From: an uncultured Candidatus Saccharibacteria bacterium
GTDB lineage: Bacteria; Patescibacteriota; Minisyncoccia; Phycocordibacterales; Phycocordibacteraceae
DNA length: 61,916 nt
Reading direction: 5' to 3'
NCBI GenBank assembly: GCA_964518755.1
Contig: CAZFHH010000001.1
Coordinates: forward strand, 1 to 61,916
The position numbers were made by a program, and so were the translations under genes. Shown here piece by piece: positions 22,941-39,824 of the stretch (the stretch's first letter is position 1; each line of letters opens with the position of its first letter). The notes beneath the pieces were generated by a model that worked only from the letters and a program-made list of their open reading frames with translations, did no database searches and was not told the origin of the DNA.

Positions 22941-24053
22941 ATGAATATTTTATATATAGCAAATATACGTCTGCCAACCGAGAAAGCGCACGGAATTCAG
23001 ATAATGAAAACGTGTGAAGCGTTCGCTCGTGCGGGACACACCGTGGAGCTTGTTGTGCCGACACGTCACACGCCAATTGCCGACGATGCGTTTACGTATT
23101 ACGGGGTTGAGAAGATATTTAAAATCACAACACTGCCTGTGCCGGACTGGGTACGTTTTGGGAAAATTGGTTTCCTCTCCTCATTGCTCATTTTTTCTGA
23201 GCGTGCGCATTTTATGCCGAGTTTTTGGTCTGCAGATATAATCTATTCGCGCGATGCACTTGTGCTTGCACAATATACGCTCCTTGGACGTAAGTTTATT
23301 TTTGAATCGCATACCAAGCCGTCAGGCCCGGCGCGCCTTGTGGCGCGCCGGGCCTACAGAGTTGTTGTTATCTCAAGGGCCCTTCGTGAAGAATATGTGT
23401 TAGCAGGTGTCCAGCCGGGAAAAATCATTGTGGCGCCGGACGCAGTGGACGCACATTTGTTTGACGGTGTGTTGGCACGCGAGACCGAGCGCGAAGCGCT
23501 AGGCCTCGCGTGCCATGAAAAAGCCGTTGTATACACAGGACATCTATACGCACACAAGGGCGCATATACCCTTGCGAGCTCAGCGATACATTTACCAAGC
23601 GTGCAATTTTACTTTGTGGGCGGAACAGAAAAAGATATCGCACAATTTCGTGCGCGGTGGGGAAGTGAGAAAAATATACACATTATAGGTCATGTATCGC
23701 ACGCGCAGGTGCCACAATATCTGCGTTCCGCAGACATATTAGTTATCCCAAACTCCGCAACCAATCAAGACGCAAAACTCTATACGTCACCGATGAAGTT
23801 ATTTGAATATATGGCAAGTGGTACTCCGATTGTTGCTGCCGATGTGCCATCAATAAAAGAAATACTAACAGATAAAGATGCAACATTTTTTACACCGGAC
23901 GATGTGCACTCGTTGGCAGAAGCAATAGCAGCGGTTTTTTCTAACGAAAAAACCGCCCAAGAAAAAGCGCAAAATGCACGACAGAAGGCAAAAAGATATA
24001 CTTGGGATAAGCGTGTCGAGGATATCGGTGTGGTTTTGCGAAATACTTTTTAA
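22941..24053 (+). CDS. Glycosyltransferase family 4
   Basis: 370 aa. N-terminal MNILYIANIRLPTEKAHGIQIMK. C-terminal SPMKLFEYMASGTPIVAADVPSIKEIL. Confidence 0.8.
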   Translation: MNILYIANIRLPTEKAHGIQIMKTCEAFARAGHTVELVVPTRHTPIADDAFTYYGVEKIFKITTLPVPDWVRFGKIGFLSSLLIFSERAHFMPSFWSADIIYSRDALVLAQYTLLGRKFIFESHTKPSGPARLVARRAYRVVVISRALREEYVLAGVQPGKIIVAPDAVDAHLFDGVLARETEREALGLACHEKAVVYTGHLYAHKGAYTLASSAIHLPSVQFYFVGGTEKDIAQFRARWGSEKNIHIIGHVSHAQVPQYLRSADILVIPNSATNQDAKLYTSPMKLFEYMASGTPIVAADVPSIKEILTDKDATFFTPDDVHSLAEAIAAVFSNEKTAQEKAQNARQKAKRYTWDKRVEDIGVVLRNTF

Positions 24054-24072: not shown

Positions 24073-24627
24073 ATGATAACCAAAGATATAACAGAGAACT
24101 CAACTGCTCCCCCAAAAGGTAAGGTTATTTGGTTTACCGGCTTGTCAGGCTCCGGCAAAAGCACCTTGGCAAACGAAGTTGCAAAGTATTTAAAAAGCAA
24201 AAATATAAGACATGAAATCCTTGACGGGGATTCTCTTAGAGAAAATGTAACAGCGTACCTTGGTTTTTGTAAAGAGGATAGAATAAAAAATCTTCAGATT
24301 GCAGGATTTGTTGCTCAGAAACTGTCTGAACACGGAGTTGTGGTGCTGGCTTCATTTATTTCGCCATATGCCGAACAGCGCCACAAATTAAAGAGTCAAA
24401 TTAAAAATTTTGTAGAGGTATACACAAACTCCACACTGGAAACTTGTAAAAAAAGAGATGTAAAAGGGCTGTACAAAAAAGTTGCCGATGGCAAAATAAA
24501 AGCTTTTACAGGTGTTGACGATCCGTATCAAGTGCCTGGAAATCCGGATATTGAAATCAAAACAGATTTATTATCAATAGAGCAGTCAGTACAGAAAGTT
24601 ATTGAGTTTTTAGAGCGCGAGCAGTAG
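24073..24627 (+). CDS. cysC: Adenylyl-sulfate (APS) kinase
   Basis: 184 aa from ATG 24073. VIWFTGLSGSGKSTLA P-loop, LDGDSLR, FISPY. Lower GC than the upstream genes. Confidence 0.85.
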   Translation: MITKDITENSTAPPKGKVIWFTGLSGSGKSTLANEVAKYLKSKNIRHEILDGDSLRENVTAYLGFCKEDRIKNLQIAGFVAQKLSEHGVVVLASFISPYAEQRHKLKSQIKNFVEVYTNSTLETCKKRDVKGLYKKVADGKIKAFTGVDDPYQVPGNPDIEIKTDLLSIEQSVQKVIEFLEREQ

Positions 24628-24647
24628 AGCTGTCTGTATTATTTATA

Positions 24648-25553
24648 TTAAATTTTAATCCAGCTATCCGGGCATGGGTTGTCTTGCTCTCTCTCTAGTG
24701 AAAGAAACCATTTTTTTGGAGCAACCACTACTTTATTTGGATTGTTGTTTAACCAAGCCCCCCACCAGCTAAAAGAGCTGTTTGCGATGATGTTATGTTT
24801 GCATTTGCTCATCAACGTCAATTCCTCAGAGTCTGTCAGAGAGTTGCCACTAACAAATATCATTGGATGTTCTATTTTTAGGTTTTCCTTCACCCACTCC
24901 ATGTCATCAGAAAAAATAAAAAAAGTCGGGTTTTGAACAGAATGTGTAATAAGAGAAACCGCACTTTTATAATAATCAATAGAGCATATCCCGTGGTATT
25001 TGTTTGTCCCTTCGTTGGAAATATAGTCACCCCTGCGTATATGCAAAGAAACGATTCCGGCAGTATTTAAAATTTGCCGATGCATCTTCTTATAAGCATC
25101 TGATTTGATTTTGAGAGTGAAGTCTTTGCGGATTATATCAGTAATATCTTTAAAATATTTTTCATTTTGCCAATTTCCGCTTAGATAGGCACCTTTATTT
25201 ATTTTCAAAACATCCGCACAAAAACCAAAAGAAGGCTCTCTCACATAGGTTCTTTTATAGAGGGGCTTTCTTGCGCTCAGGCCTCTAAATATCTTTCTAT
25301 ATATTCTCAAAAAAATATTTCGTGTAGCCATTTTGGGCAAATGCATCTTTTTTGTGTCTTCTTTTTTCGCAAAGTCTTCTATAGTATTGAAACACCCAAG
25401 AGAGTATTCTCGTTGTGTATCGTTTTTGCTTTGATGGTTATATGATGAAGTATCAAGTTTCAATACGGTGTTATTAAGGCGCGCCAAATGCCTCCCAAGC
25501 GCATATTGAAACATCTGATTTCCCATTCCGCTCTGTAGTTTTGTTATTATCAT
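24648..25553 (-). CDS. Alpha-1,2-fucosyltransferase (GT11)
   Basis: 301 aa. MGNQMFQYA and HIRRGDY motifs. Confidence 0.8.
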   Translation of the reverse strand: MIITKLQSGMGNQMFQYALGRHLARLNNTVLKLDTSSYNHQSKNDTQREYSLGCFNTIEDFAKKEDTKKMHLPKMATRNIFLRIYRKIFRGLSARKPLYKRTYVREPSFGFCADVLKINKGAYLSGNWQNEKYFKDITDIIRKDFTLKIKSDAYKKMHRQILNTAGIVSLHIRRGDYISNEGTNKYHGICSIDYYKSAVSLITHSVQNPTFFIFSDDMEWVKENLKIEHPMIFVSGNSLTDSEELTLMSKCKHNIIANSSFSWWGAWLNNNPNKVVVAPKKWFLSLEREQDNPCPDSWIKI

Positions 25554-26809
25554 GGGTATTGTTGAAGTATTCTATTATAAAGGCTCTCATATTCACAAGC
25601 AATTTTTTCCCAAGTGAACTTTTCACTCCAAGATTTATGCCCGGCATCTGCCAAGCCGACCAGCTTTTCTTTGTCGCCACAGATATTTTCAAGTATGGTA
25701 GCAGAGCTTTTTGTTTCTGCTCGGCAAATATTATAGTTTCCTGTTTGGTTGAGTTTTATAATGCCGGTAAGGAGTTTTTTAATAAAGGTCTTTATCTTTG
25801 CCTTCAATGATGCATCCGGATTGACGCCGTGTATTGTTGGCAACAACAAACCGCCCCCCGACCATTTTATTATTTCCTTTGCATTTCCAACATCTGTAAC
25901 CAAGAAGGGTGTTTTTGATGCCATAGCTTCAAAAAGTACGATAGGGGAACATTCTGTGTTGGACGGAAAGAGAAACAGGTCTGCCACCCCAAAAGCTGAG
26001 GCAGTCTCATCTCTATCTAACTGCTGTATCAAAATTTTCTTCCCCGCGAGTAAAGATTTCTTGTCGCCATTAATTTTCACTTTTTGTTTCTCACATGTTT
26101 CTAAACATTTTCCTTTGTTCCCAACTATTAAAAATGTTGCATTTTTAATAGTTGCAGAATTAAAAATTTCTATCGCTTCTTTGTGACCTTTTTGCCCGGT
26201 GTGGGAGCCAACAAGTAGGATTAGGAAATCATTTTTTGGAATACTTAACCTTTCTCTGATGTCGATATTATTATTTTTTGAAAATTCGTCAGAGCTCGCT
26301 CCATTTGGTATTACTGTAATATTTTTAGCGCCACTTTCTCGAGCATAGTTTATGTCCTTATAATCATTTGACAAAAAAACATTGGCGTCAAATTGCGTAA
26401 ACCAGCTCCCCATCTTTTTGTAATATTCTTTATACTCATTAACGTGGAAAGCTGCAAACCCAGTGGGCACAAAAACCTTTTTTGCTTTTATTTTATCTAA
26501 AACAAGCAACATCGCATCGGTCATCGGTTGTTGAGCTGCAAAGTTTGTTATGACATCAAAGTTTGAGTTTATCAGAAAGTCTTGATATTTTTTAACCTCC
26601 CCGGACATTCCCGAAACGAAGTTCCCGGTGATATCAAATTCTTTAACGTTAACCCCGTTTAGGTCCGGTTTGTATTCATCAGGCAGTTTTGTTGTTGCGA
26701 CGGTAACGCTATGTCCGAGACCGATCAAGTGTTCTGAAAGTTGCTTAACCACCTCATACATTCCTCCCCTCGCCGGATGATACTGTTTTACTGTGTGAAG
26801 TATTTTCAT
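25550..26809 (-). CDS. Glycosyltransferase family 4
   Basis: 419 aa. FPSNTECSPIVLFEAMASKTPFLVTDVG. Confidence 0.75.
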   Translation of the reverse strand: MKILHTVKQYHPARGGMYEVVKQLSEHLIGLGHSVTVATTKLPDEYKPDLNGVNVKEFDITGNFVSGMSGEVKKYQDFLINSNFDVITNFAAQQPMTDAMLLVLDKIKAKKVFVPTGFAAFHVNEYKEYYKKMGSWFTQFDANVFLSNDYKDINYARESGAKNITVIPNGASSDEFSKNNNIDIRERLSIPKNDFLILLVGSHTGQKGHKEAIEIFNSATIKNATFLIVGNKGKCLETCEKQKVKINGDKKSLLAGKKILIQQLDRDETASAFGVADLFLFPSNTECSPIVLFEAMASKTPFLVTDVGNAKEIIKWSGGGLLLPTIHGVNPDASLKAKIKTFIKKLLTGIIKLNQTGNYNICRAETKSSATILENICGDKEKLVGLADAGHKSWSEKFTWEKIACEYESLYNRILQQYP

Positions 26810-26827
26810 ATATTTTTTCTTAAAAAA

Positions 26828-27844
26828 TCAACCAATGTGTTTTGTGTGGAGGTTTCTGTCACCAGCAAATTTCTTGTAGTAATGATAAACTGTTTTGGTT
26901 ATATAATAAAGGAGAGGTATTTTTTGCAGTCTGTTCACAAGCCATCCCTTAACAAGTTTTATATTTTTTTGTTTATAAATTAAGTTCAGTTTTAGAAACT
27001 CATTTTTGCTTAATCTTTCTTTTGTGGTGTATGCCCTAAAAATCTTTTTGTTAAGATAGGTTCTTTTTAGTGTGCTTATTAAGCCTGATTTACTCTCGGT
27101 GTTATTAATTATATCAATATCGCCTTGTGCCAATTTATAGTAACTGTTTATATTATTAAGTACTATTTTCTTTCTGGTCTCCTCTTGAATCTCTTTTGTT
27201 TTGGGAACTTGCCCTATAGATTGACTATGAATTCTGAACCTCAATAGAATTTTTGGAATATTTACAATTTTATATTTATCAGACATTTCTGAGTACAGTT
27301 CATAGTCTTCAGCGTGCTCGTAATCTTTGTTGTAGCCACCTAACTTTTGAATAATCTCTTTTCTAAAAAAAATTGTACTGTGTATAAACGGATTGCGAAA
27401 TAGCAACTCAAATTTAATCAAGTAATATTCTGAGGGCGATCTTTTGTATCCCAAATGATTGTTATTTTCATCAATTACCTCTGCCCATCCACCGGCTAAA
27501 GCAACGCCCGGATTTCTCTCAAGGAAATCGTATTGTTCTTGAAGCCTGTCTCGTGTGCTTATGTCATCTTGGTCCATCCTGGCTATGTATTCTCCGCGCG
27601 CTTCCTTAAGCCCTCGGTTTAGTGTAAAAATCAGCCCCTCATTTTTTTCGTTTTTTATAAAGTGGACCCTGTCATCGCTATATTCGTTAATTATCTCGTG
27701 ACTTCCATCTGTTGAGCCGTCGCTGATAATCAGCAACTCAAAATCATTAAAAGTCTGCTTCAAGATACTGTCTATTGCTTCTCTTAGATATTTTTCACCA
27801 TTATATACGGGTAGTACGACAGATATTTTTGGGTTTCGAGGCAT
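26828..27844 (-). CDS. Glycosyltransferase family 2
   Basis: ISVVLPVYNGEKYLREAIDSILKQTF, LLIISDGSTDGS and MDQDD. I use ATG 27844; the ORF track's upstream start at 27868 would overlap the epimerase gene. Confidence 0.8.
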   Translation of the reverse strand: MPRNPKISVVLPVYNGEKYLREAIDSILKQTFNDFELLIISDGSTDGSHEIINEYSDDRVHFIKNEKNEGLIFTLNRGLKEARGEYIARMDQDDISTRDRLQEQYDFLERNPGVALAGGWAEVIDENNNHLGYKRSPSEYYLIKFELLFRNPFIHSTIFFRKEIIQKLGGYNKDYEHAEDYELYSEMSDKYKIVNIPKILLRFRIHSQSIGQVPKTKEIQEETRKKIVLNNINSYYKLAQGDIDIINNTESKSGLISTLKRTYLNKKIFRAYTTKERLSKNEFLKLNLIYKQKNIKLVKGWLVNRLQKIPLLYYITKTVYHYYKKFAGDRNLHTKHIG

Positions 27845-27846
27845 AA

Positions 27847-28770
27847 TTATTTTTTTTGATTTACCCAAAAGTTTTTTATTCCTTCTTTTAGGCTTATAGG
27901 TTTAAATAATGGCACGTCAGTTTTTAGTTTGGAGATATCTAAAATATTAATTGGTATATCAACGCCGCGGGCTTCTTTATAGGTGATGGGGAAGTCTATG
28001 CCACTTATGGATTTTATCATTCGTAATACATTGTTTACCGTGTTTCCTTTTCCACTGCCAACATTATAGATATTGCCCCATTTATTATTCTTAATAAGCA
28101 TTAGTATCGCTTTGCTCACATCATCAATATGAATATAGTCTCGCACAACCTTGCCGTTTCCCCATACCTCCATTGGTTTATGGTTAAGTATTTTTCCGAC
28201 AGTAACCGCTACCAGCCCAAGCTTCCCAAGCGTATTTTGATTTTTACCGTATACATTAGAGACTCTTAATATTATGTAATCTAATTTATTGGTTCGTGCG
28301 CACATCTGTATATAATTTTCTAATGTTACTTTCATCCAGCCATAGATAGTTATGGGTTTGGTAGGAGAGTCTTCTTTATTTTTTTCTTCGCCATTTATAC
28401 CATAAACAACTCCTCCTGAAGAAAAGTAAATGATTTTATTTACTTTGTTTTTTATCATCATATCAATCAATCTCATAGTGAAAATCAACTCATTGTTTTC
28501 AATAATGGCATCAATTTGTGTTGAAGGAACCGCAGAGGAAACTAAATGTACCACAATCTCTATTTGGTTTTCACTAAATATTTTCTCTAGTATCTCAAAA
28601 TTATCAAAATCACCTTTAACAATCTCAATTTTATCTATAAAAGGGATTAAATTTTCCCAGTGTGCTTTCTTTCTGTCAAATACAATAATCTCTTTATCTG
28701 CATCAACAAGAGACTTTGTTAGGTTGGACCCTATGAAGCCGGCACCGCCAAATATTAATATTTTCTTCAT
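27847..28770 (-). CDS. NAD-dependent sugar epimerase/dehydratase (SDR)
   Basis: 307 aa. GGAGFIGSNL Rossmann motif and YGWMK (YxxxK). Confidence 0.8.
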   Translation of the reverse strand: MKKILIFGGAGFIGSNLTKSLVDADKEIIVFDRKKAHWENLIPFIDKIEIVKGDFDNFEILEKIFSENQIEIVVHLVSSAVPSTQIDAIIENNELIFTMRLIDMMIKNKVNKIIYFSSGGVVYGINGEEKNKEDSPTKPITIYGWMKVTLENYIQMCARTNKLDYIILRVSNVYGKNQNTLGKLGLVAVTVGKILNHKPMEVWGNGKVVRDYIHIDDVSKAILMLIKNNKWGNIYNVGSGKGNTVNNVLRMIKSISGIDFPITYKEARGVDIPINILDISKLKTDVPLFKPISLKEGIKNFWVNQKK

Positions 28771-29615
28771 ATTGAAATTAACCCGATTACTTTTTTAAGT
28801 TTTCGTAATAAATTTTTAAATTGTACCTTCAGTTTCATTTGCAGGGACGTGTAATATGATGTTTTGTATCCTAATAATTTGTTTACTTCAATCATTTGGG
28901 CAGAATTATTTATTTCAGCAATTTTATTTGCGTAGATTGTTTTTCTATTCATGGGAATAATCTTATTAGACCTAATACCTCTGGATTTTTGTTTGTTTTG
29001 AATGTCCCCGCTAACTCTTAAAAAGTCAGTGTAGTTTTTGTATGATTCACTATACGGTATGTCGATGTATTCGCAGATTTTTTTAATTTCAAAATCTGGA
29101 TTTTTACAGAGATCTTCGTATTTGAAGATCTTTATATTATTCTTGAGGAGCTCGTTTATATATCTGGAGTATTGTGTATAAAACTCTTTAACTGGTGGCA
29201 TTCCACGAGAAATCCACACATCAATAGAGTCACGAACAAAGGCAAATGCAATAAATCCAGTGTCATTTTTTAATTCTTCTAAAGATAGTAATTTATTAGG
29301 TGGATTAAAATTGTTATATTCGTGTGGTGTAAAATTTATAAATGACCAGTCCCGTATTATTAACTGCTTATTTTTAGTAATACAGATATTAGATAGCTCC
29401 AAGGCACTTTTCCCAAAGGCATCATTTTTCAGATTAATGCCGTACCATTTTTTTGCCTGAGCTTTTATTGTGGTTGGTGACTTTTCTTTTTCTATACCCC
29501 ACCCACCTCCGAGGGGGTTGACCTCAGACATAACAACGACATTGGGCAGGCTACCCAAGCAGCGGTTGAGAAGGGTTCCTCCGGAACGAGCAAAACATAT
29601 CATCAGTTTAACCAT
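28767..29615 (-). CDS. Sulfotransferase-family protein
   Basis: 282 aa. 5'-PSB-like FARSGGTLL, 3'-PB-like FVRDSIDVWIS, and YEDLCKNPDFEIKKICEYIDIPY. Confidence 0.65.
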   Translation of the reverse strand: MVKLMICFARSGGTLLNRCLGSLPNVVVMSEVNPLGGGWGIEKEKSPTTIKAQAKKWYGINLKNDAFGKSALELSNICITKNKQLIIRDWSFINFTPHEYNNFNPPNKLLSLEELKNDTGFIAFAFVRDSIDVWISRGMPPVKEFYTQYSRYINELLKNNIKIFKYEDLCKNPDFEIKKICEYIDIPYSESYKNYTDFLRVSGDIQNKQKSRGIRSNKIIPMNRKTIYANKIAEINNSAQMIEVNKLLGYKTSYYTSLQMKLKVQFKNLLRKLKKVIGLISI

Positions 29616-30537
29616 AATAAATCATTTTGGATAACCTTATATAGACCCTTGTTAAAAGTGGTGAAATTTTATTTAGAAATAATAGAAAAAATATGATGGA
29701 TGGTATTTTTTGATTATAACCACAATCTCTAATATCTTCAATGTTTTTAATCTTGTACTGTAATGTTGTAGACCAAAGACGGAATAGATATTTTTTAATT
29801 TGTTTTTTGGGAATGCCGGTCCTTATTTTATTGAATAAATAATAATATTCAAATATCTCTATATTTTTATTATCAATACACTGCTTAGTAACTTTGTGAT
29901 CAGCGTCTGCAATAGTACCAATAAGTGGGCGAGAAGAATATATAAAATTATTGTTCATTGATAGCATATTTATATAAAAATCTATATCAACAAGCCATTT
30001 TAAGTTTCTATCGTAGTACTTGCCGGCATCTTTTTTGTATATTGTAGCACTCGGGGCACCTATAATATTTCCAAAATATAGACTTGTGGGTTCCCCCATT
30101 AAGGTTTTTAATTCGCTATAAGAAACACTATGTATTCTATTTTTACTACTGTCACTTGAATAGTGGATGGCCGTTGCGCTGAATGCAAAATCAGATTCCG
30201 GATTTTGTTCCAAGATCTTCACAAGCTCTCGTAAACTATCTTTGTACATAAATTTATCATCATGATGCAATATTTTTATATATTTCCCTGAAGCGTGGCG
30301 TACCGCCTCATTCCAATTTTCGGGACTTCCTTTTCTGGTTTTGTTTTTAAAATATTTTAGTTTATTCCCAAAATCATATCTTTGTATTAATTCTTGAATC
30401 GAATTATCAGGAGAATCATCCGTAACTATAACCTCATAGTCTTCGTAATCCTGAATTAAAATGGACCCAAGAGTTTTTTTGAGGTAGTTTGTTTGTGCGT
30501 ATGCGGGAATACATACTGATACTTTAGGGTTTTTCAT
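29608..30537 (-). CDS. Glycosyltransferase family 2
   Basis: 309 aa. VSVCIPAYAQTNYLKKTLGSILIQDY, VIVTDDSPD and HHDDKF. Confidence 0.8.
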   Translation of the reverse strand: MKNPKVSVCIPAYAQTNYLKKTLGSILIQDYEDYEVIVTDDSPDNSIQELIQRYDFGNKLKYFKNKTRKGSPENWNEAVRHASGKYIKILHHDDKFMYKDSLRELVKILEQNPESDFAFSATAIHYSSDSSKNRIHSVSYSELKTLMGEPTSLYFGNIIGAPSATIYKKDAGKYYDRNLKWLVDIDFYINMLSMNNNFIYSSRPLIGTIADADHKVTKQCIDNKNIEIFEYYYLFNKIRTGIPKKQIKKYLFRLWSTTLQYKIKNIEDIRDCGYNQKIPSIIFFLLFLNKISPLLTRVYIRLSKMIYYG

Positions 30538-31321
30538 GTAGAAAATGCTTTAAGGTGTTATAAAACTTCAATATAAATTTATTTAGTTTATATTGATATT
30601 CTATAACGCGTGGAGAGTTTTGTTGAGTGCAGTGTGAATCAAGTTGATAATGTTTAAGCGCGTTTAAAATGTAATAGTTCTCCATTTTATGGAGGATACA
30701 GTATATTTTGATAGCTCTTTCAAACGAGTGTCCACAATTTTTGTCATCTCGTATTAAAATTGAGATCGGAGTAAACCATTTTACGAAACCTAAAAGAGTT
30801 TCACTACTCATACTCATGTTACTGGTTGATGGCCAGGTCTCATCCCCTGTGTCTTTTTTATATTTGTCTATTATTTTTTTAATATCGATTTTGCATATTT
30901 TATTTACACTATCTACTAATATGTTAGCGCCCTTATTTTTAGATAAAAAATAAGGGCTTCCCATTGGGTGCGGTACATAACCAATAATCGCACGGGGACT
31001 ACTTTTAAGTTTGGTAATTGATTTGGAATAAAAATCATGAGAAAGATCCACGTCATATTCAAGCAGGGTAACAAAAGCTGTCTCTAATAAGTCATTTTTT
31101 ATTAAGGCGTACCAGGCTGTATATGCTACAAGATATTTATATTTTTCAATGTTATTTGGTAGCTTTCTTGCAATTATGACCTTATTAATATTTTCAATAA
31201 GAGAAGTGTCTCCTGTGCCGACAAACACATATCTAAATTTTGGGAATTGAGAAAATGTTTTTTTATTTTCGAAATCCAAAATTTTATTTTGATCATGAAC
31301 AATAATAAAGGTTTCGTGCAT
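30524..31321 (-). CDS. Hypothetical protein within the glycan operon (possibly a non-canonical glycosyltransferase)
   Basis: 265 aa. Overlaps its neighbours in an operonic arrangement. No motif recognised with confidence. Confidence 0.45.
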   Translation of the reverse strand: MHETFIIVHDQNKILDFENKKTFSQFPKFRYVFVGTGDTSLIENINKVIIARKLPNNIEKYKYLVAYTAWYALIKNDLLETAFVTLLEYDVDLSHDFYSKSITKLKSSPRAIIGYVPHPMGSPYFLSKNKGANILVDSVNKICKIDIKKIIDKYKKDTGDETWPSTSNMSMSSETLLGFVKWFTPISILIRDDKNCGHSFERAIKIYCILHKMENYYILNALKHYQLDSHCTQQNSPRVIEYQYKLNKFILKFYNTLKHFLHEKP

Positions 31322-31325
31322 GTTT

Positions 31326-32480
31326 TTAGCAATTAAAGTTATTAATTCGGCCTGGTTGTAATCTTTTATATATTCTAAGTGTTTTTTCAGCTGTATTTTC
31401 CCATGTAAAATTTTTAACTCTGTTTAACCCTAATTTTATACGATTTGAATTTCTTCCCTCAAGTATTACTTGTGCTATTGCTTGGGTCATATTTTCTGTG
31501 TCTTTTGGGTCAAAATATAAAGCAGAATCTCCAGCAACTTCTGGTAGTGATGATGAATTCGATGCGGCAATAGGGGTTCCACACGCCATGGCTTCTAGTA
31601 ACGGTATACCAAAACCTTCATATAGTGAGGGAAATACAAAAGTCTTCGCACAATTATACAATAAAATTAATTCTCTATTGGAAACAAAGCCAAAATTATG
31701 AATTTTATTTTCAATATTATTTGTTTTAAACAAATTAGTTTCTTTTTCTGTAAACTTTCCGCCACCTACAACTATGACATCTAAATTGAATTTATTTAAG
31801 TTATTGTATGATTTAATAAAGGCTAAAAAATTCTTATATTTATCTCTACCTCCTACATACAGCAGATATGGTTTTTTGATATTTCTTTTATTTAAAAAAC
31901 TTTTCTTGGTATTTTCATCTTCAATCTTTTTGAAATCAGGATTGACCCCTAAATAGATTACAGAAATCTTCTTTTCATCTATATTGTAATAATGCAGGAG
32001 GTCATTTTTTGTATTTTGAGAAACACAGATAATAGCATCTGCTGAATAGGCGCACTCCTTTTTTCGTTTGACAAATTCCAAGCTTGATTTTGTATGAAAA
32101 AAAACAGGAAATTTTTCATAAATCATATCATGCATGGTAAGAACTTGCGGGATTTTTAAGTTTCCATAGGTGGTAAAATAAGTTGAGTGAAAAACACCAT
32201 CAGTTAACTTTCCCCAGTATCTATTTTTAATGTAGTTATTTATTTTTTGAAATAAAGGTTTAAAAATACGGTTAGGGCGTGGAGGTGTTAACTGTTTTAT
32301 TTTTTTAATAGTAATATTTTCTTCTTTTGGCAGTGCCCCGGTCGGGTCTTTATCAATTAGAATGTTGATTTTTGTATCAACCTCTATATTGTTTAATCTA
32401 CTGAGGTACTCATTAAAATAACGAGAAATCCCGCCCGTTTTCTGCAAGCTATAAATTATGCCGTCTATATATATTTTCAT
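31326..32480 (-). CDS. Glycosyltransferase family 4
   Basis: 384 aa. EGFGIPLLEAMACGTPIAASNSSSLPEV. Confidence 0.8.
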   Translation of the reverse strand: MKIYIDGIIYSLQKTGGISRYFNEYLSRLNNIEVDTKINILIDKDPTGALPKEENITIKKIKQLTPPRPNRIFKPLFQKINNYIKNRYWGKLTDGVFHSTYFTTYGNLKIPQVLTMHDMIYEKFPVFFHTKSSLEFVKRKKECAYSADAIICVSQNTKNDLLHYYNIDEKKISVIYLGVNPDFKKIEDENTKKSFLNKRNIKKPYLLYVGGRDKYKNFLAFIKSYNNLNKFNLDVIVVGGGKFTEKETNLFKTNNIENKIHNFGFVSNRELILLYNCAKTFVFPSLYEGFGIPLLEAMACGTPIAASNSSSLPEVAGDSALYFDPKDTENMTQAIAQVILEGRNSNRIKLGLNRVKNFTWENTAEKTLRIYKRLQPGRINNFNC

Positions 32481-32747
32481 CTTGAATGTTAGTTTGGTTC
32501 TCTTCCTACGAACTTTGTGGCTGTACCACCGTGTTCATTAAGGGTTTCTAAAAATCATCATAAAACGTAACCTCATTATAACTAATATTCTTTAAGATCT
32601 CTAGCTTGATATTTTTCTTTTGCCGTGTATCGTGGAAGACGCTGATGAATATCCGACCCTTTCTAAGGTTTTAGATAACACATGGGCTGGTCTTAATTTA
32701 AGAAATATCTATTTGTGGGTTTTGTAAACCAGTACCCGTGGAGATTT

Positions 32748-33698
32748 TTATTGTTTTCTTTCTTTAAAATTGCCGAACCATTTTTCTGGGGGATAGAATT
32801 CTTTAACCATACTAATCAAGTCAAGTTCTTCTAATTTTTTAATAAAATCTTGCCTTAATCTTTCGTCATAGTCTATTTGGGGGAAAATCTCGCTACTGCA
32901 TTTTTTATCAAATTTTACGCCTGAAAAATCAGACATTTTTTTAAGCCATTTTTCTGGATTTAATACTATGTCTTCGTAAAAAACAATCATTCCATTTATG
33001 TTATCTGCTTGTATAAAGGCGTGGTAATTAAAGTATGTCCAAACCGTAAGCATTTTAGATAATTGATTTTTCTCGTTGTCTTGTCTATTAAACTTTCTTG
33101 CTATAAGTTCATAGTTAGAATTTCCGAAAAAATACTCCCCGACATCTTTATTTTTCGATAAATATTTTGTTAAAAAATAATTTTTACCATATTTACCTAA
33201 AATATTTGTTGCTAACGCGTATCTTTTTTTAAGACGAATTCTGTTTTTAATAGGAGGGGTTACTGTTTGGCTAAGCCAAGTATTAATTGGATTGCGAATT
33301 ATATGTATAAATTTACAATTATAATCATTTACTATGTCTTTTAGTACAAAATGACATCTATTGGGTTGCAAAATCGCATCATTTTCTAAATTATGTAAAA
33401 GATCAAAAAGTGGTTGGATTTCTTGAAAATTAGTAGGAATAATATCGCTTCCCGTTTTTTTTAGTCCGTTATGATAAAATTTGTATTTTTCCTTAATGAG
33501 TTTAAAATTAGTGGTTTTATAACTGTCCCACGGATAAAATTTATGTAAGGTCGTGGCAATGTTTTTTGTTATTTCATTAAATAGGTTTGGATGTAGCGGC
33601 TCATAAAAACAACTCATGTCAGAGTTACTCCCTTTTAATATTTTATACATCATCGTTGTCCCTGAACGATAATAACCATTAAATATAAGTTTAATCAT
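32748..33698 (-). CDS. Sulfotransferase-family protein
   Basis: 316 aa. 5'-PSB YYRSGTTMM, 3'-PB IIRNPINTWLSQ, FYEDIVLNPEKWLKKM. Confidence 0.65.
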   Translation of the reverse strand: MIKLIFNGYYRSGTTMMYKILKGSNSDMSCFYEPLHPNLFNEITKNIATTLHKFYPWDSYKTTNFKLIKEKYKFYHNGLKKTGSDIIPTNFQEIQPLFDLLHNLENDAILQPNRCHFVLKDIVNDYNCKFIHIIRNPINTWLSQTVTPPIKNRIRLKKRYALATNILGKYGKNYFLTKYLSKNKDVGEYFFGNSNYELIARKFNRQDNEKNQLSKMLTVWTYFNYHAFIQADNINGMIVFYEDIVLNPEKWLKKMSDFSGVKFDKKCSSEIFPQIDYDERLRQDFIKKLEELDLISMVKEFYPPEKWFGNFKERKQ

Positions 33699-33726
33699 TT
33701 TGTTATTGATTTTAATGAGGCATGAT

Positions 33727-34737
33727 TCATCTTAATTTATATTTATTTCTAATTCTATAAATGATACCCTTAAGTCGAGCATATTTATTCTGAAACTTTA
33801 TTCTGAGTATACTTTTTAGAGTAACATTATTCTTTCCCTCATCAATATGATATAAAGATCTAATCATTTCAATATCTTCTTTATTTTCTTTATAAATTTT
33901 ATCTGCCAGTGGTAACCTTTTTTTATAGTGCGGTTCATTATGTTTAGTAGACCAGTCAGTTAATTTATCTTGAAAAGAAAAGTATTTCAAAACCTTTTCA
34001 TTTTGGCGTAATGACTCTGTTCCTCGTGGGTGCCAGGGGTGTACTGTAAAACAATTTGGTAGACAAACACTTTGTGATCCAGTTGCTATTTCCAGTCGTT
34101 TATTAACATCTCCCCCCAACTTTGATAAGCTGGTACTCCAAATTTGGTGTGAGTCATATCCCCCTATCTTATCCCAATATTCTCTGCGAGCAGATATCAT
34201 GGAGCCCTTATTTCCTGCGATTTTTGGAATCGCAGAGTTTTTATTAAGGCAAGTATTCAAGCATTTGTGGAAATCATTACTTGCCTTGAGCCATTTTTTA
34301 TACGATTTTACACTGGCAGGATATTGAGCCATTTTCCTATAGATGTTTACTACAGCTTTGGGGTTCCCCTCGTGGAAGTTTTGTAACTTAATCAAAAAGT
34401 CTCTTGGCAATAATTGGTCTCCATCCATAACAGATATTATTTTACCTTTAGCAACACTAAGTCCGGCATTATTACATTTCCCCCAATGGAAAGGTGAATT
34501 TATGGGTTCGTTTAGATAAATAACTCTAATGTTTATTTTATCTTTTACTTCTTTATATCTATCTTCAAGAGAACTTAGCCCCAGCCCATGATTGTGTTTA
34601 TTAGCCACTTCCTTACTTCGTTGTTCGATATAGACAATCTCAAATTCTTCCTTGGGGTAGTCTTGAAGTAGTAGCCCATCAATAATATGGAAAAAATTTC
34701 TATAACTACAATCCCAACTGATTATTGTGTGAGTCAT
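33727..34737 (-). CDS. GT-A-fold glycosyltransferase-like protein
   Basis: 336 aa. ...FEIVYIEQ... and VMDGDQLL (DxD-like). The call is tentative. Confidence 0.5.
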   Translation of the reverse strand: MTHTIISWDCSYRNFFHIIDGLLLQDYPKEEFEIVYIEQRSKEVANKHNHGLGLSSLEDRYKEVKDKINIRVIYLNEPINSPFHWGKCNNAGLSVAKGKIISVMDGDQLLPRDFLIKLQNFHEGNPKAVVNIYRKMAQYPASVKSYKKWLKASNDFHKCLNTCLNKNSAIPKIAGNKGSMISARREYWDKIGGYDSHQIWSTSLSKLGGDVNKRLEIATGSQSVCLPNCFTVHPWHPRGTESLRQNEKVLKYFSFQDKLTDWSTKHNEPHYKKRLPLADKIYKENKEDIEMIRSLYHIDEGKNNVTLKSILRIKFQNKYARLKGIIYRIRNKYKLR

Positions 34738-34750
34738 ATCGTATGGTTTA

Positions 34751-35992
34751 TTATTGCTTTTCTATTTTTTCTAAAACGTAACTTACTGGAGGGTATACTC
34801 CCAAAATATCTTTTCTGGATATTACAAAGACGTCTTTAATTCCTTCGGTTGATATTTCAAAAGGTAATAAATGTGTTTTGTAAAAGACGTTATTCCCCAA
34901 CACTCCTATACCAGCGTTCAAATTATAATTACCGGGAGGTAAATAAGGATTTTCAATAGTAATATGTAATTTATTTTTACCGGCATCTATTTTGGAGATA
35001 TCAACTTTGGCGGTCATTATCCTCACTAGTTGGCTGTTTATTATTTGCAGTCCAATCAAGAGATCGTTTATCGGTTTGGTGGAATTTAGGATTAACTCAA
35101 ATTCTAATGGCTGATTATAAAGAGATTTGTTTCTGTTGGTAAGTTTAATATTTTCTATGCAAAAATTATCAATATTTGTTTTATAGGGCCCCGCTTCTTT
35201 TAGTTCGTTCTGTGATAGCTTTAAGTATTCCGCAATGACATCTTTTGTGTCGCCTATCATTTTTATTTTGCCAGCCTCCATCAGTATGCATCTCTTGCAT
35301 AGACTTTGTACGGCGGGGAGGTTGTGGCTGACGAATAAGATGGTGCGTCCTGATTTTTTTGTCACTTCGTCCATTTTACCAAGGCACTTTTTTTGGAATT
35401 CCGCATCACCCACAGCAAGCACTTCGTCAACAATTAATATATCCGGCTCCATGTGTGCAGCAACAGCAAAAGCGAGGCGAACGGACATGCCGGATGAGTA
35501 TCTTTTTACTTGCATGTCAAGGAATTTTTCGACGCCGGAAAATTCAACGATGTCGTTGAATTTTCCGGCAATTTCTTTTTTGCTCATTCCAAGGATTGCT
35601 CCGTTTAGAAAAATATTTTCCCGTCCGGTGAGCTCCGGGTGGAAGCCGGTCCCGACTTCAAGCAGGGAAGACATGCTTCCTTTGTATTCTATTGTCCCGG
35701 TTGTTGGTGGGGTTATTTTTGAGAGTATTTTCAGGAGAGTGGATTTACCCGCGCCGTTTGCTCCTATGATGCCAACTGCCTCGCCTTTGCCAACGGTGAA
35801 ATTTATATCTTTGAGCGCCCAGAATTCTTCTCGGGTTTCTCTGCGGATTACTTTCCCAGTTTTATGTTTTAGAAATCTGAATGGGTGCTTGAGGGTGTTT
35901 GCAAACACATCTCTTAGCGCGACATAACCACCGCGCTGGTGGGTGATGTTATATTTTTTTGATATTCCTTTGACTGTTATAATCGGTTCCAT
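34751..35992 (-). CDS. wzt: Polysaccharide ABC exporter ATP-binding protein (Wzt/TagH-type) with C-terminal extension
   Basis: 413 aa. Walker A GANGAGKST, signature YSSGMSVRL, Walker B ILIVDEVL. The extra C-terminal domain of ~160 aa sits where Wzt carbohydrate-binding modules occur. Confidence 0.8.
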   Translation of the reverse strand: MEPIITVKGISKKYNITHQRGGYVALRDVFANTLKHPFRFLKHKTGKVIRRETREEFWALKDINFTVGKGEAVGIIGANGAGKSTLLKILSKITPPTTGTIEYKGSMSSLLEVGTGFHPELTGRENIFLNGAILGMSKKEIAGKFNDIVEFSGVEKFLDMQVKRYSSGMSVRLAFAVAAHMEPDILIVDEVLAVGDAEFQKKCLGKMDEVTKKSGRTILFVSHNLPAVQSLCKRCILMEAGKIKMIGDTKDVIAEYLKLSQNELKEAGPYKTNIDNFCIENIKLTNRNKSLYNQPLEFELILNSTKPINDLLIGLQIINSQLVRIMTAKVDISKIDAGKNKLHITIENPYLPPGNYNLNAGIGVLGNNVFYKTHLLPFEISTEGIKDVFVISRKDILGVYPPVSYVLEKIEKQ

Positions 35993-36011
35993 ATTTTTTT
36001 ATTATTACAGA

Positions 36012-36833
36012 CTACACTATGTCTGCAAAATATTTTTCAGTCTTCTTGAAAAATGCGACACCTGTGATGAGCAAAATTGAAACCGCAATAAATGAAATGC
36101 CGAGAAGATCCCAGTTAACCGGTGCATTTCCAAAAAGCGATGCTCTTGCCGCTTTAATAACTCCGGTCATTGGGTTTATCGCCAATATCCACGAATACTT
36201 TCCAGCCATACTTGCCGGATAAATTACCGGGGTTAAGAAAAGCATAATTTGAATGAAAAATGGCAAGATATATCTGACGTCGCGATATTTAACATTGATT
36301 GATGCCAGAAACAATCCGCCTCCGATTGCCGCCATGAAAGTTATCAGTAGTAATATAGGGAGTATCCATAGGCTGGAGAGGTTTGGTACATAACCATAGT
36401 AGATCATCATGCCAACAAGTATCATTGCGGCGATGAAGAAGTCTACAAATTTAGTGATGACGCCGGATATTGGAAGTATCAATCGGGGGAAATATACTTT
36501 TGTAATGATGTTCGTGTTACTAATTAGTGAGCTACTTGTTTGTGCGAGCGCGGAGGAGAAAAATTGCCAAAATAACAGTCCGGTATATACAAATATAGGG
36601 TAGGGAATTCCGTCTGATGGCATCTTGGCAAATTTGCCGAAGAATATACTAAACACAACCATTGTCATGAATGGTTGAAAGACCGCCCACAAAATGCCGA
36701 TGGCGGTTTGCTTGTAGCGTACTTTGAAATCTTTCCATGTGAAAAAATACAACAGCTCTTTGTACTGCCAGATTTCTTTGAAGTCATCCAAGCTAAGTGC
36801 CTTCTTCGGTTTTATGATTGTTACATTATTCAT
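36012..36833 (-). CDS. wzm: ABC-2 type polysaccharide exporter permease (Wzm-type)
   Basis: Six hydrophobic helices. I use ATG 36833 ([11 protein letters not shown]...), which overlaps the fcl stop by 8 nt. Confidence 0.8.
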   Translation of the reverse strand: MNNVTIIKPKKALSLDDFKEIWQYKELLYFFTWKDFKVRYKQTAIGILWAVFQPFMTMVVFSIFFGKFAKMPSDGIPYPIFVYTGLLFWQFFSSALAQTSSSLISNTNIITKVYFPRLILPISGVITKFVDFFIAAMILVGMMIYYGYVPNLSSLWILPILLLITFMAAIGGGLFLASINVKYRDVRYILPFFIQIMLFLTPVIYPASMAGKYSWILAINPMTGVIKAARASLFGNAPVNWDLLGISFIAVSILLITGVAFFKKTEKYFADIV

Positions 36834-37752
36834 TTTTTTTATACCAATCATAAGTTGATTTAATGCCATCCAACAGTTCAATTTTGTGGCGCCAACCAAG
36901 ATTGTTGATTTTGTTTACATTCAACAATTTTCTTGGTGTACCGTCCGGTTTGGAACTGTCCCACACAATTTCTCCGGTAAATCCCACTATATTTTTTATG
37001 ATGTCGGCGAGCTCTTTTATAGATATGTCTTCTCCGGACCCAATATTTATGATTTCTGAATCAGAATAATTATTCATTAAAAATATACACGCATCGGCAA
37101 GGTCGTCCACATGCAGGAACTCTCTTTTGGGTGAACCGGTACCCCACAAAATAACTTCTTTTTTGCCATGTGTTTTTGCGTCATGAAATTTCCTCAAAAG
37201 AGCCGGAATAACATGAGAGCTCTGTAAATCAAAGTTATCATTTAATCCGTAGAGATTAGTTGGCATAACGGATATAAAGTTCGTACCGTATTGTTTATTG
37301 TATGCTTGGCACATTATGATACCGGCGATTTTAGCGACCGCGTATGCTTTGTTAGTTGGTTCCAGTTTTCCGTCCAATAAATAATCCTCTTGTATCGGTT
37401 GTTTCGCCAATTTTGGATATATGCACGAACTCCCCAAGAAAAGTAATTTCTTTACATTATTTATATACGCATTGTGTATGATGTTAGTTTGTATTTTTAG
37501 ATTTTCATATATAAACTCAGCCGGGTGTTCGTCATTCGCGATTATTCCTCCGACTTTTGCAGCAGCGAGAAAAACATACACCGGCTTTTCTTTTTGAAAG
37601 AAATTTTTTACCGCCTCGTCATTAAGTAAATCAAGCTCGCTTCTTGTTTTCAGAATAATATCTTCATAGCCGGTCGCTTGGAGTTTTCTTAAAAGAGCAG
37701 ACCCGACAAGACCACGATGCCCGGCTATATAAATTTTTGATTTTTTATTCAT
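36826..37752 (-). CDS. fcl: GDP-L-fucose synthase
   Basis: [15 protein letters not shown] and YAVAK (YxxxK). The start at 37752 overlaps the gmd stop by 8 nt. Confidence 0.85.
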
Positions 37753-38824
37753 ATTTTTTATTTCTTTTATGTATACCATTCTTTACGATATTATTTTTAA
37801 TCTTTTGTAAATCATACCGTATCATTTCTTTTACTAATTCCCGGAAGGTGATTTTTGGTTGCCAATGCAGTATTTTTTTGGCTTTAGTTGCATCACCCAT
37901 TAAAGAATCCACCTCAGTAGGTCTAAAGTACTTCCGATCAACCCCAATGATAATCTTACCTGTCTTTTTATCTGTCCCTTTCTCATGTATCCCTTTTCCA
38001 GACCATTGAATATCAATACCCAGTTCTCCAAAAGCAAGTTTACAAAAATCTTTAACTGAATATTGCTCTCCCGTGGCTATTACAATATCTCTTGGCTGAT
38101 CCTGCTGGAGCATGAGATACATAGCTCTTACATAATCTTTGGCATGTCCCCAATCACGCTTGGCATTCAAATTTCCCAGATATAATTTATTTTGTAATCC
38201 GTATTTAATTTTAACAGCCGCTTGAGTTATTTTTTTGGTTACAAATGTCTCGCCTCTCCTTGGCGATTCGTGATTAAATAAAATACCCGAGACCGCAAAA
38301 ATTCCATAAGCTTCTCTGTAATTTATGGTTATCCAGTGAGCATATAATTTGGCAGCTCCATAAGGACTTCTGGGATGGAAGGCGGTGTTTTCATTTTGCG
38401 GTGGCGTGGCAGAACCAAACATTTCAGACGTTGATGCTTGGTAAAATTTTGTTTTATCTTTTAGTCCAAGTATTTTTATCGCTTCAAGCAAACGGAGTGT
38501 ACCGATAGCATCTGAATTTGCCGTGTATTCCGGAGTTTCAAAAGAAACTTGCACATGACTTTGTGCCCCGAGATTATATATCTCATTCGGTTGAACTTCT
38601 TGAATAATCCTAATAATGTTTGTTGAGTCCGTCAGGTCTCCATAATGTAATAAAAACTTTTTGTTTTTTTCATGTGGATCTTGATATAAATGATCTATTC
38701 TTTCCGTGTTAAAAGATGAAGAGCGTCTTTTAATGCCGTGAACTTCATACCCCTTATCTAAAAGAAGTTCCGCCAAGTATGAACCATCTTGTCCCGTTAT
38801 ACCCGTTATGAGAGCTTTTTTCAT
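37745..38824 (-). CDS. gmd: GDP-mannose 4,6-dehydratase
   Basis: 359 aa. [19 protein letters not shown] and [10 protein letters not shown]. Confidence 0.9.
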
Positions 38825-38828
38825 ATAA

Positions 38829-39077
38829 TTACCATTTATTTATTTTACCAACGACTTTCTTTTTTAATCCGAGGTATGTTTTCACGGCGCTCTTTTCCAA
38901 GTCCGGTGAGACAAGTCGCAGGATTTCTTTCCCGAGGATGCGATATTGTCCACCGACTTTGTTTGCGCGAAGTAACCCCTTTTTAAGCATACGTTTGATT
39001 GTGCTGTTGCTTATCTTTAGAAGTTTTTGCGTTTCGCTTGTTGTGTATACTGCGTTTTCTCTGATTTCCTCGCTCAT
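38829..39077 (-). CDS. Excisionase-family (MerR-like winged HTH, HTH_17-type) DNA-binding protein, first gene of the island operon
   Basis: [37 protein letters not shown]. It ends 4 nt before the gmd start. I use ATG 39077. Confidence 0.6.
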
Positions 39078-39136
39078 GTTTTGATTATATAGAAGTGTCA
39101 TGCGGTGTCAAGTGGTGCCAGTGCGAGGGAGCTTAG

Positions 39137-39168
39137 CCCCACGGATTTCCTTTAGGAAATCCGTGGGG
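39137..39168. repeat. Hairpin CCCCACGGATTTCC-ttta-GGAAATCCGTGGGG (member of a two-copy family)
   Basis: 14-bp perfect stem. The related copy is at 39825-39870. Confidence 0.8.
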
Positions 39169-39214
39169 TGGGGGATGGAATGTAAGTATTGAGTTTGCGT
39201 GTTTTGTGTTGTGG

Positions 39215-39225
39215 TATACTATACT
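39215..39225 (+). promoter_or_regulatory. Tandem TATACT boxes preceded by TGG (GTGGTATACTATACT), 7 nt upstream of the hicB-like ATG
   Basis: The motif GTGGTAT(A/T)(C/G)T recurs upstream of several genes (2839, 39913, 61130, 61671). Confidence 0.4.
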
Positions 39226-39231
39226 CATATT

Positions 39232-39550
39232 ATGTCCTTTAAGAATACCTTACGAAATGGACAGGTGCGCAACGTTATATTTCGAGAAGGAAACTCCTTT
39301 TATGGGGTTGCGCTTGAGCTCAATATTGTTGAACAGGGCGACCCCGCAGGAAGTGGTGTTTCTTTTTGATGAGGCGGTGAGAGGATATTTGGAGTCTGCA
39401 CAAAAAAATAAACTTCCCATCTCGGTTTTGAATCAAGATGTTGCTTCCGAATATGAACTGCTTTGGAACGCCGGACAAAAGGGATATAAAAAAGGCCGTC
39501 AACATATTTATAGTACCTCCTCGCAGTCAATCTCCGCTCTTGTGGCGTAG
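39232..39550 (+). pseudogene. HicB-like antitoxin gene with a frameshift
   Basis: Frame A gives MSFKNTLRNGQVRNVIFREGNSFYGVALELNIVEQGD..., with a stop at 39367. Frame B continues ...TPQEVVFLFDEAVRGYLESAQKN... to 39550. Joined, they give the HicB pattern (beta strands, then QGxTxEE...EA...YLE). The shift lies near GGCGACCCCGCAGG (39338-39350). Confidence 0.55.
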
Positions 39551-39556
39551 TGTGGT

Positions 39557-39792: not shown

Positions 39793-39824
39793 TTCGGCGT
39801 TCTGGCTCTCGTGTAGAATACAGC

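Follow-up and report, generated by a model that had tools for sequence, protein, structure and literature searches.

A probable lineage-typical surface-glycan locus with Wzm/Wzt export in an uncultured Candidatus Saccharibacteria bacterium

Comparison with described glycan loci

The surface-layer (S-layer) glycosylation (slg) clusters of Gram-positive bacteria are characterized by wzm and wzt genes located upstream of transferase genes, by Wzy_C transferases (WsaB and WsfB), by a low G+C content and by overlapping open reading frames (ORFs) (PMC2943079). A TPR motif is present in WsfB and in PglL, and Wzt has been proposed to recognize a 2-O-methyl cap during export (PMC2943079). A locus of similar design was found in a 61,916-nt stretch of DNA (hereafter the window) from an uncultured Candidatus Saccharibacteria bacterium (assembly GCA_964518755.1, contig CAZFHH010000001.1), where it occupies positions 24073-39077. 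This block is probably a lineage-typical, recombining, serotype-like surface-glycan locus of Patescibacteria which depends on an ABC transporter, its head and chromosomal site being ancestral and its tail mosaic, and not an import from outside the phylum. Sequences with which it was compared are cited below by label (e.g., L004).

The nearest analogues of the locus are the slg clusters of Geobacillus stearothermophilus NRS 2004/3a and Paenibacillus alvei CCM 2051T. In both cases the host is without an outer membrane, wzm-wzt lies upstream of a central block of glycosyltransferase (GT) genes, nucleotide-sugar genes are located in the cluster, the G+C content is under the genome level, the ORFs are packed and overlapping, and Wzt is proposed to read a capped end. 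A Wzy_C-domain transferase with TPR is matched here at the level of predicted domains, and asparagine-synthase-like genes occur in P. alvei as well as in four loci of the candidate phyla radiation (CPR; L086, L087, L094, and L095). The two differ in sugar, with fucose here and rhamnose or N-acetylmannosamine (ManNAc) there, and in the sulfotransferases and CysC encoded here, whereas the chains there are terminated by a methyl or glyceric-acid-phosphate group. In addition, no WbaP-type priming gene or S-layer structural gene was recognized in the window, an HTH_17 gene heads the operon and the host belongs to another phylum. Such a pathway was regarded in the original prediction as unexpected in the absence of an outer membrane; this view is not sustained, as the module is abundant in Patescibacteria and the same design is found in Gram-positive S-layer glycan clusters (PMC2943079).

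The combination of Wzm with an ATPase/beta-sandwich Wzt is also shared with the Wzt-domain O-antigen systems of E. coli O8/O9a (2R5O), K. pneumoniae O12 / R. terrigena (5HNO) and Aquifex aeolicus (7K2T, 8DKU, and 8DKY), in which the ATPase is likewise conserved and the C-terminal domain variable. However, a lipid A-core acceptor, an outer membrane and a recognized WbdD/WbbB-type terminator are lacking here. Gram-negative O-antigen and capsule loci resemble the locus in their fixed flanks (here GT4-cysC and WzyC-MurB-SecA), AT-rich variable center, mosaic divergence and exchange between lineages, but the variation seen here is between deeply diverged Patescibacteria (SecA 55-74%) and not between strains of one species. 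Lipopolysaccharide (LPS) and S-layer glycan clusters are reported to be generally of lower G+C content (PMC2943079).

The components can all be assigned to known families, none of them is mechanistically new, and the design has precedents in monoderm bacteria. What appears to be undescribed is (i) a conserved head, HTH-(gmd-fcl)-wzm-wzt, at a fixed site with swappable tails, (ii) the exchange of tails between deeply diverged Patescibacteria, and (iii) the combination of Wzt-domain export with sulfation dependent on 3'-phosphoadenosine 5'-phosphosulfate (PAPS). The only wzt-adjacent sulfotransferase met in the literature searched is that of Aeromonas salmonicida, yet the product of that system is without sulfate (PMC4483657). 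The same searches returned nothing on Patescibacteria with sulfotransferases, an O-antigen ligase or Wzm/Wzt, and a study of Saccharibacteria pili terms their glycosylation "unexplored" (PMC11623550).

Composition, gene order and conservation of the locus

The average G+C content of the block is 34.8%, compared with 45.7% for the rest of the window. When calculated over 1-kb windows, the mean is 0.346 inside and 0.457 outside (standard deviation 0.035 each), a gap of ~3 standard deviations which is unbroken across 14 consecutive 1-kb windows and reaches a trough of 0.27-0.30 at 31-34 kb. The G+C content of third codon positions (GC3) is shifted too, at 0.25-0.34 for interior genes and 0.40-0.48 for flanking genes, and the AT-richness that had been judged by eye is thus confirmed by computation. 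The dip is graded, with wzm and wzt at ~40% G+C, and is not co-terminous with a block of raised similarity to a relative (~22.2-39.1 kb), as the latter takes in the GT4 gene of normal G+C content at 22941-24053.

All 15 genes of the island are encoded on the minus strand and are closely packed, with overlaps of 4, 4, 8, 14, and 8 nt or short gaps. Larger apparent overlaps (GT2a with the epimerase gene, and fcl with gmd) are an artefact of longest-ORF start choice. The single minus-strand operon of the original prediction, with overlaps of 4-14 nt and cysC excepted, is borne out with one gap of 267 nt, and its gene list and order were reproduced by Pfam and NCBIfam. Repeat, tRNA and domain scans revealed neither an integrase nor a neighboring tRNA nor direct repeats at the island borders. 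The right junction was confirmed by an independent Logan assembly contig (L001), which spans MurB-WzyC-HTH-gmd-fcl-wzm-wzt-GT2, and is therefore not an assembly artefact. The features of the locus are as follows, head first.

39084..39111, minus: sigma-70-type promoter, TTGACA-16-TATAAT (12/12 matches; the sole perfect site in 16.7 kb)
38829..39077, minus: HTH_17 (MerR/excisionase-like) small DNA-binding protein, operon gene 1 (PF12728, E=3.5e-11)
37745..38824, minus: gmd, GDP-mannose 4,6-dehydratase (TIGR01472, 600.8 bits, cut-off 415; PF16363, E=7e-156)
36826..37779, minus: fcl, GDP-L-fucose synthase (NF047922, 506.9 bits, cut-off 500)
36012..36833, minus: wzm, ABC-2 permease, 273 aa from the ATG of independent gene calls (L001) (PF01061, 64.2 bits, cut-off 26.9); 89% identical in L004; 19 nt from wzt
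34751..35992, minus: wzt, ABC ATPase (residues 1 to ~250; PF00005) with a C-terminal carbohydrate-binding domain (~250-413, DNA 34754-35245)
33727..34737, minus: GT2c, GT2-like (GT-A) glycosyltransferase adjoining wzt (PF00535, 30.7 bits); 87% identical in L004, 57% in L087
32748..33698, minus: ST2, sulfotransferase, the gene of lowest G+C content (28%) (PF00685, 38.8 bits, cut-off 22; YRSGTT and RNP motifs)
32481..32747, minus: sole sizeable intergenic gap, 267 nt; ~239 bp (32516-32754) are not in the relative's locus; promoter-like site at 32603-32575 (minus)
31326..32480, minus: GT4b, GT4 glycosyltransferase (PF00534, 108.9 bits); 86% identical in L004
30524..31321, minus: GT-A-fold glycosyltransferase-like domain without a Pfam family (AlphaFold2 model, mean predicted local distance difference test (pLDDT) 93.9)
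29608..30537, minus: GT2b, GT2 glycosyltransferase (PF00535, 79.9 bits)
28767..29615, minus: ST1, sulfotransferase (PF00685, 28.4 bits, cut-off 22; ARSGGT and VRD motifs); 70% identical in L004 and L091
27847..28770, minus: nucleotide-sugar epimerase/dehydratase of the short-chain dehydrogenase/reductase (SDR) type (PF01370, 162 bits); under every NCBIfam equivalog cut-off (GalE 162.8 vs 262.3)
26828..27868, minus: GT2a, GT2 glycosyltransferase (PF00535, 131 bits); translation probably begins ~12 codons after the TTG, since the alignment to L004 begins at residue 13
25550..26809, minus: GT4a, GT4 glycosyltransferase (PF00534, 67.2 bits)
24648..25553, minus: GT11, alpha-1,2-fucosyltransferase family protein, final gene of the operon (PF01531, 121.5 bits)
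24073..24627, plus: cysC, adenosine 5'-phosphosulfate (APS) kinase, final gene of the convergent plus-strand operon GT4-methyltransferase-GT4-cysC (PF01583, 185.5 bits); the start is Met34 of the long ORF, in agreement with a 184-aa orthologue in a relative
22941-24053, plus: GT4f, GT4 glycosyltransferase, normal G+C (Pfam; 78% identity to L088)
22229-22912, plus: MT, methyltransferase, normal G+C (Pfam; 76% identity to L088)
21066-22232, plus: GT4e, GT4 glycosyltransferase, normal G+C (Pfam; 57% identity to L088)
39930..42113, plus: Wzy_C (WaaL/O-oligosaccharyltransferase-type) membrane protein, 727 aa, with C-terminal TPR repeats (PF04932, 63.6 bits)

The closest homologues of the locus were found within the same lineage and in conserved synteny. 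The organism-named proteins in the best 120 Wzt matches comprise 14 from Patescibacteria and two from an unclassified "bacterium," and the organism-named top homologues of GT11 comprise six and one, respectively; a search for donor lineages with Wzt, GT11 and ST2 revealed no donor outside Patescibacteria for Wzt or GT11. Similarly, the best matches of the host SecA among those listed (GTDB species representatives) all belong to Patescibacteria, with identities of 52-60%, and include Paceibacterota, Vogelbacteria, Wildermuthbacteria, and Nealsonbacteria.

In GCA_964650475.1, with a SecA 74% identical to that of the host, the whole locus is located at the same chromosomal site in the order GT4-MT-GT4-cysC, convergent GT11...wzt-wzm-HTH, then WzyC-MurB-SecA-Obg-GatB. 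The strand switch is the same and the G+C content dips to 0.27-0.35 vs. 0.43-0.46; gmd-fcl is absent and there are two additional ORFs. In GCA_023266935.1 (SecA 55%) the same site holds SecA-WzyC followed by gmd-epimerase-...-HTH-wzm-wzt, with a different tail that contains TylF-type and other methyltransferases, a GT11-like gene and an asparagine-synthase-like gene, and is without a sulfotransferase. An identical head, HTH-gmd-fcl-wzm-wzt, was found in L094, where a Bac_transf priming enzyme is encoded at a distance of 6 kb. The HTH protein, at 85% identity in L004 and 68% in L008/L095 and L094, is always encoded just upstream of (gmd-fcl-)wzm-wzt.

Modules of the locus are also found in other combinations. 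A hydrothermal-vent contig carries ST1-epimerase-GT2-GT4-GT11 beside a GT4f orthologue, L093 has GT4f-cysC together with several sulfotransferases, and L091 likewise holds locus modules in another arrangement; the GT4-cysC pair is kept in L088/L089 and L093. In L085-L087, wzm-wzt of the same C-terminal subtype is accompanied by STELLO-like GTs, GT11, DUF268 methyltransferases and sulfotransferases (none of the latter in L086). The variable tail is lower in G+C content in all three genomes compared. It is plausible but unproven that the tail originated in AT-rich Patescibacteria, as related clusters (L085 and L086) sit in Patescibacteria contigs that are AT-rich throughout (25-32% G+C).

Predicted pathway, exporter and acceptor

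It is proposed that a single promoter ahead of the small HTH gene would drive the 15-gene operon. The -10 element of this promoter stops only 6 nt short of the HTH ATG, and the first gene of the operon may therefore be read from a leaderless mRNA. Gmd and Fcl would produce GDP-L-fucose, and a fucose-containing chain would be assembled by seven putative cytoplasmic glycosyltransferases (GT11, two GT4, three GT2 or GT2-like and the GT-A domain without a Pfam family), with GT11 transferring fucose. All three parts of a GDP-L-fucose/fucosylation module are present in the form of the Gmd and Fcl equivalogs and GT11, the alpha-1,2 linkage being assumed from the family of the latter. The chain would presumably be built on a polyprenyl-phosphate carrier, with the priming enzyme likely encoded elsewhere. 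Two PAPS-type sulfotransferases, fed via the adjacent APS kinase CysC, may sulfate the chain, the C-terminal domain of Wzt may, by analogy, read its capped non-reducing end, and Wzm/Wzt would export it; the Wzy_C-TPR protein may then move it to an acceptor, for which a surface protein (S-layer or pilin) is the likeliest candidate. The pathway class of the original prediction, namely GDP-fucose synthesis, glycosyltransferases, PAPS-type sulfotransferases and Wzm/Wzt export, was thus correct. No Wzx-type flippase (Polysacc_synt/MurJ-type) was detected among the window ORFs scanned with Pfam.

The ORF at 30524-31321, which had been listed as unknown, appears to be a further glycosyltransferase of GT-A fold. 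No match was obtained in Pfam or NCBIfam, and a sequence-profile search of the PDB was also empty. The best PDB match of its predicted fold is WbbM (6U4B; E=5.5e-8), followed by other GT-A enzymes. WbbM is the Klebsiella pneumoniae O2a galactan polymerase and likewise belongs to an ABC-transporter-dependent pathway; however, the identity is 13% and the TM-score 0.55, the ORF has a single domain and its activity is not inferable from the fold match. Among the 318 distant homologues (50% clustering level), fusions to GT2_5, GT34 or methyltransferase domains are frequent, and the residues H9, E59, Y89-D90, and E201-R202 are invariant. They may represent an uncatalogued glycosyltransferase family.

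The sulfation parts in the window are an APS kinase and two Sulfotransfer_1 proteins, without an ATP sulfurylase. The xRSGxT motifs of ST1 and ST2 are taken to be 5'-phosphosulfate-loop-like, and together with RxP/RD would presumably correspond to the 5'-phosphosulfate-binding (5'-PSB) and 3'-phosphate-binding (3'-PB)-like motifs. ST2 belongs to a rare family, with 34 homologues in a collection of 5.8 billion proteins. Its sole organism-named relative is archaeal (Archaeoglobus fulgidus DSM 8774, 47% identity; L092 8001-8933) and is encoded within an archaeal glycan cluster that also includes a flippase of Wzx type. The family of ST2 is thus patchily distributed across domains, which is not proof of a donor. 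In the Paceibacterota metagenome-assembled genome L005, a fused ATP sulfurylase-APS kinase (Sat-CysC, PAPS synthase; 287-1948) lies directly upstream of the WzyC-MurB-SecA orthologues, and sulfation genes are therefore linked to the site in other members of the lineage.

The extra C-terminal domain of Wzt, as had been anticipated, is a genuine Wzt-type carbohydrate-binding domain on the basis of profile searches and structure prediction. A profile assembled from its homologues matched the Aquifex aeolicus Wzt domain (7K2T/8DKU/6O14) at E=5e-17 to 1e-15 and the Kdo (3-deoxy-D-manno-octulosonic acid)-cap-binding domain 5HNO at E=0.017. With an AlphaFold2 model of residues 250-413 (pLDDT 86.9), the 16 best PDB matches found by Foldseek are all Wzt domains, including 8DKY (3-O-methyl-mannose-bound), 5HNO and 2R5O, at 12-19% sequence identity to the solved domains. 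Among Patescibacteria the ATPase part of Wzt homologues is 70-87% identical and the C-terminal part varies, which is the classical pattern of cap-specific Wzt domains; a distinct C-terminal subtype is common to the window and seven other proteins.

A cap could be added by either of the two sulfotransferases, by GT11 or by the methyltransferase at 22229-22912. That the window's Wzt subtype has a sulfotransferase as its conserved partner was rejected as a firm conclusion, as L086 has the same subtype without a sulfotransferase, and the hypothesis of a sulfate or methyl cap in the original prediction is weakened by this. GT11 is present in all five loci of the subtype but is not a discriminating partner, since it also occurs in a genome with a Wzt domain that appeared to differ on alignment (P0062 and P0177, one contig). 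The proposal as a whole, in which a sulfated, fucosylated glycan has a sulfate or sulfated/alpha-1,2-fucose end-cap read by a new specificity class of Wzt domain, is attached to S-layer or pilus proteins by the Wzy_C-TPR protein and serves these episymbiotic, ultra-small bacteria as a determinant of host attachment or phage evasion, is regarded as doubtful.

The Wzy_C-TPR protein had been suggested as a possible attaching enzyme, and it is a plausible candidate ligase as judged from its homologies; it could formally be a polymerase instead. When compared with solved structures, the single sequence gave only TPR noise, and a profile of four sequences was required. With this profile, residues 208-364 matched the WaaL structure 7TPG (E=8.4e-5), and residues 520-720 matched TPR structures. 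Orthologues of the protein lie beside SecA in L004, L005, and L008/L095, and the gene adjoins the glycan locus in a close relative and in one distant relative and lies beside (MurB-)SecA in a third.

A protein acceptor is tentatively favored by analogy, as the O-glycosylation of S-layer proteins in Geobacillus stearothermophilus and Paenibacillus alvei comes closest among the systems described. A lamin-tail (LTD) and PKD-domain surface protein (12521-14113) is a possible candidate for a glycan acceptor. In the main alternative, which is less likely than a protein acceptor and on balance seems somewhat unlikely, the same pathway would place the polymer on a lipid anchor or on peptidoglycan as a capsule, a teichoic-acid-like polymer or a lipoglycan. 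The ATPase domain of Wzt scores highest, under the cut-off, against the TagH and galactan-export models of NCBIfam, Wzy_C is related to the lipid-A-core ligase WaaL, murB is adjacent to the locus, and the seven transferases suggest a sizeable polymer. However, CPR bacteria are thought to lack LPS and lipid A, and no LCP-family ligase or lipid-anchor synthesis gene was found in the window. Furthermore, the Wzy_C-TPR architecture matches that of the protein O-oligosaccharyltransferases PglL and WsfB (PMC2943079).

Exchange within the lineage and other features of the window

In the comparison with GCA_964650475.1, the proteins from MT to HTH are 70-89% identical, whereas flanking proteins are at 57% (GT4e), 60% (WzyC), 48% (MurB), 62% (Obg), and 74% (SecA); MT and GT4f, unlike GT4e, belong to the block of raised similarity. 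Synonymous divergence (dS) was calculated for the same pair by the method of Nei-Gojobori. The flanking genes are saturated, with a proportion of synonymous differences (pS) of 0.67-0.82 and an identity of 27-34% at four-fold sites. In GT4b and GT2c, dS is 0.34 and 0.45 (four-fold-site identity 81 and 77%, respectively), and in cysC, GT11, wzt, GT2a, GT4f, and GT4a it is 0.84-1.09, with ST1, the epimerase gene, GT2b, wzm, HTH, and MT having synonymous sites near saturation. Such a mosaic along the locus points to recombination between lineages, as selection at the protein level does not account for a low dS, and recombinational exchange of locus parts among Patescibacteria is supported by these sequence comparisons. 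The lineage of the window and the relative were recovered in sibling sequencing runs (SRR14803398 and SRR14803397).

Purely vertical inheritance, with the low G+C content due to local mutational or selective bias and the similarity due to purifying selection alone, would fit the conserved synteny, the G+C dip in three genomes and the near saturation, like that of the flanks, of around half the genes in the island (ST1, epimerase, GT2b, wzm, HTH, and MT). It is nevertheless improbable without exchange, as dS is uneven and well under saturation in GT4b, GT2c and six more genes while flanking core genes are all saturated, and as the glycosyltransferases show stronger conservation than SecA, Obg, and MurB; purifying selection on the protein leaves dS unlowered.

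The horizontal acquisition of the block from outside, as originally predicted, is not supported, the homologues in syntenic order within the lineage being what that prediction itself had named as evidence to the contrary. Of the characteristics of genomic islands only compositional deviation was found, and no mobility gene, tRNA or repeat borders, sporadic presence or foreign homologues. A recently acquired, self-contained island from a foreign donor (e.g., Gram-negative, of low G+C content) is thus highly improbable in spite of the 11-point drop in G+C, the strand switch and the rare, patchy family of ST2 with its A. fulgidus member, given that the named nearest Wzt and GT11 homologues are Patescibacteria or unclassified, that locus, strand switch and G+C dip recur at the same site in a relative with only 74% SecA identity, that the head is kept in still more distant Patescibacteria, and that the borders are bare and the island is not self-contained.

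Several observations weigh against a lineage-typical, recombining surface-glycan locus. The stronger conservation of island proteins could be due in part to selection, and the dS comparison rests on one close relative. Wzy_C is absent within 10 kb of the head in L094, and its adjacency is thus not universal. The Pfam Wzt_C model scores 27.7 bits on the window's Wzt, under the gathering cut-off of 30.4, TM-scores of the C-terminal model with solved Wzt domains are only 0.5-0.6, and no chain terminator of WbdD or WbbB type was recognized at the locus. No S-layer or pilin gene was identified near it. The block had been described as self-contained, and this does not hold: the 62-kb window revealed no initiating phosphoglycosyltransferase (Bac_transf; best tblastn E=0.78), no ATP sulfurylase and no GDP-mannose genes (ManB/ManC), and fucosylation and sulfation therefore depend on genes elsewhere.

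Between the HTH promoter and WzyC, G-rich palindromic hairpins at 39137-39174 and 39825-39870 have the motif CCGTGGGGTGGGGG in common, which occurs in three copies in the window vs. 0.11 expected. The two hairpins flank ~650 bp of small ORFs, where the relative L004 has a 323-aa ORF. The small ORFs (39206-39920) have no Pfam match, and a HicA-like "GSH" motif in them was spotted by eye only and is unconfirmed; the bracketed segment may be a small mobile or decayed toxin-antitoxin cassette.

Elsewhere in the window, a complete group I intron is located at the start (78-340, plus; Rfam RF00028, 76 bits), followed by tRNA-Ile(GAT) at 717-792 (plus); no rRNA model matched the bases around the intron. 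An IS200-like Y1 transposase and two TrwB/TraG-like coupling-type ATPases are also encoded (8738-9409, 10636-12543, and 53583-56369). The content of the window, with the group I intron, the TrwB/TraG-like ATPases and the LTD-PKD protein, fits a placement in Patescibacteria, and it was thus reasonable in the original prediction to presume that the organism lacks an outer membrane. A second patch of low G+C content (48662-50799, ~34-35%) holds a SET-domain protein (48662-49081, plus) and an RMKL/UPF0020-type methyltransferase (49252-50325, minus), and is adjoined by a tmRNA gene (50376-50799, minus), a classical integration hotspot. The ORFs at 2822-4348 and 56438-58735 have no Pfam match.

The surface chemistry of CPR/Patescibacteria is almost unexplored, and the locus represents a concrete entry point to it, of value for cataloguing and hypothesis generation and not as a conceptual advance. 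The conserved operon head could serve for the detection and typing of these loci throughout the phylum, and the binding domain of Wzt is suited to ligand screening. The probable sulfated, fucose-containing product would be of a kind which is rare in bacteria, and the surface glycans of host-attached Patescibacteria are obvious candidates for roles in host recognition and phage defence.

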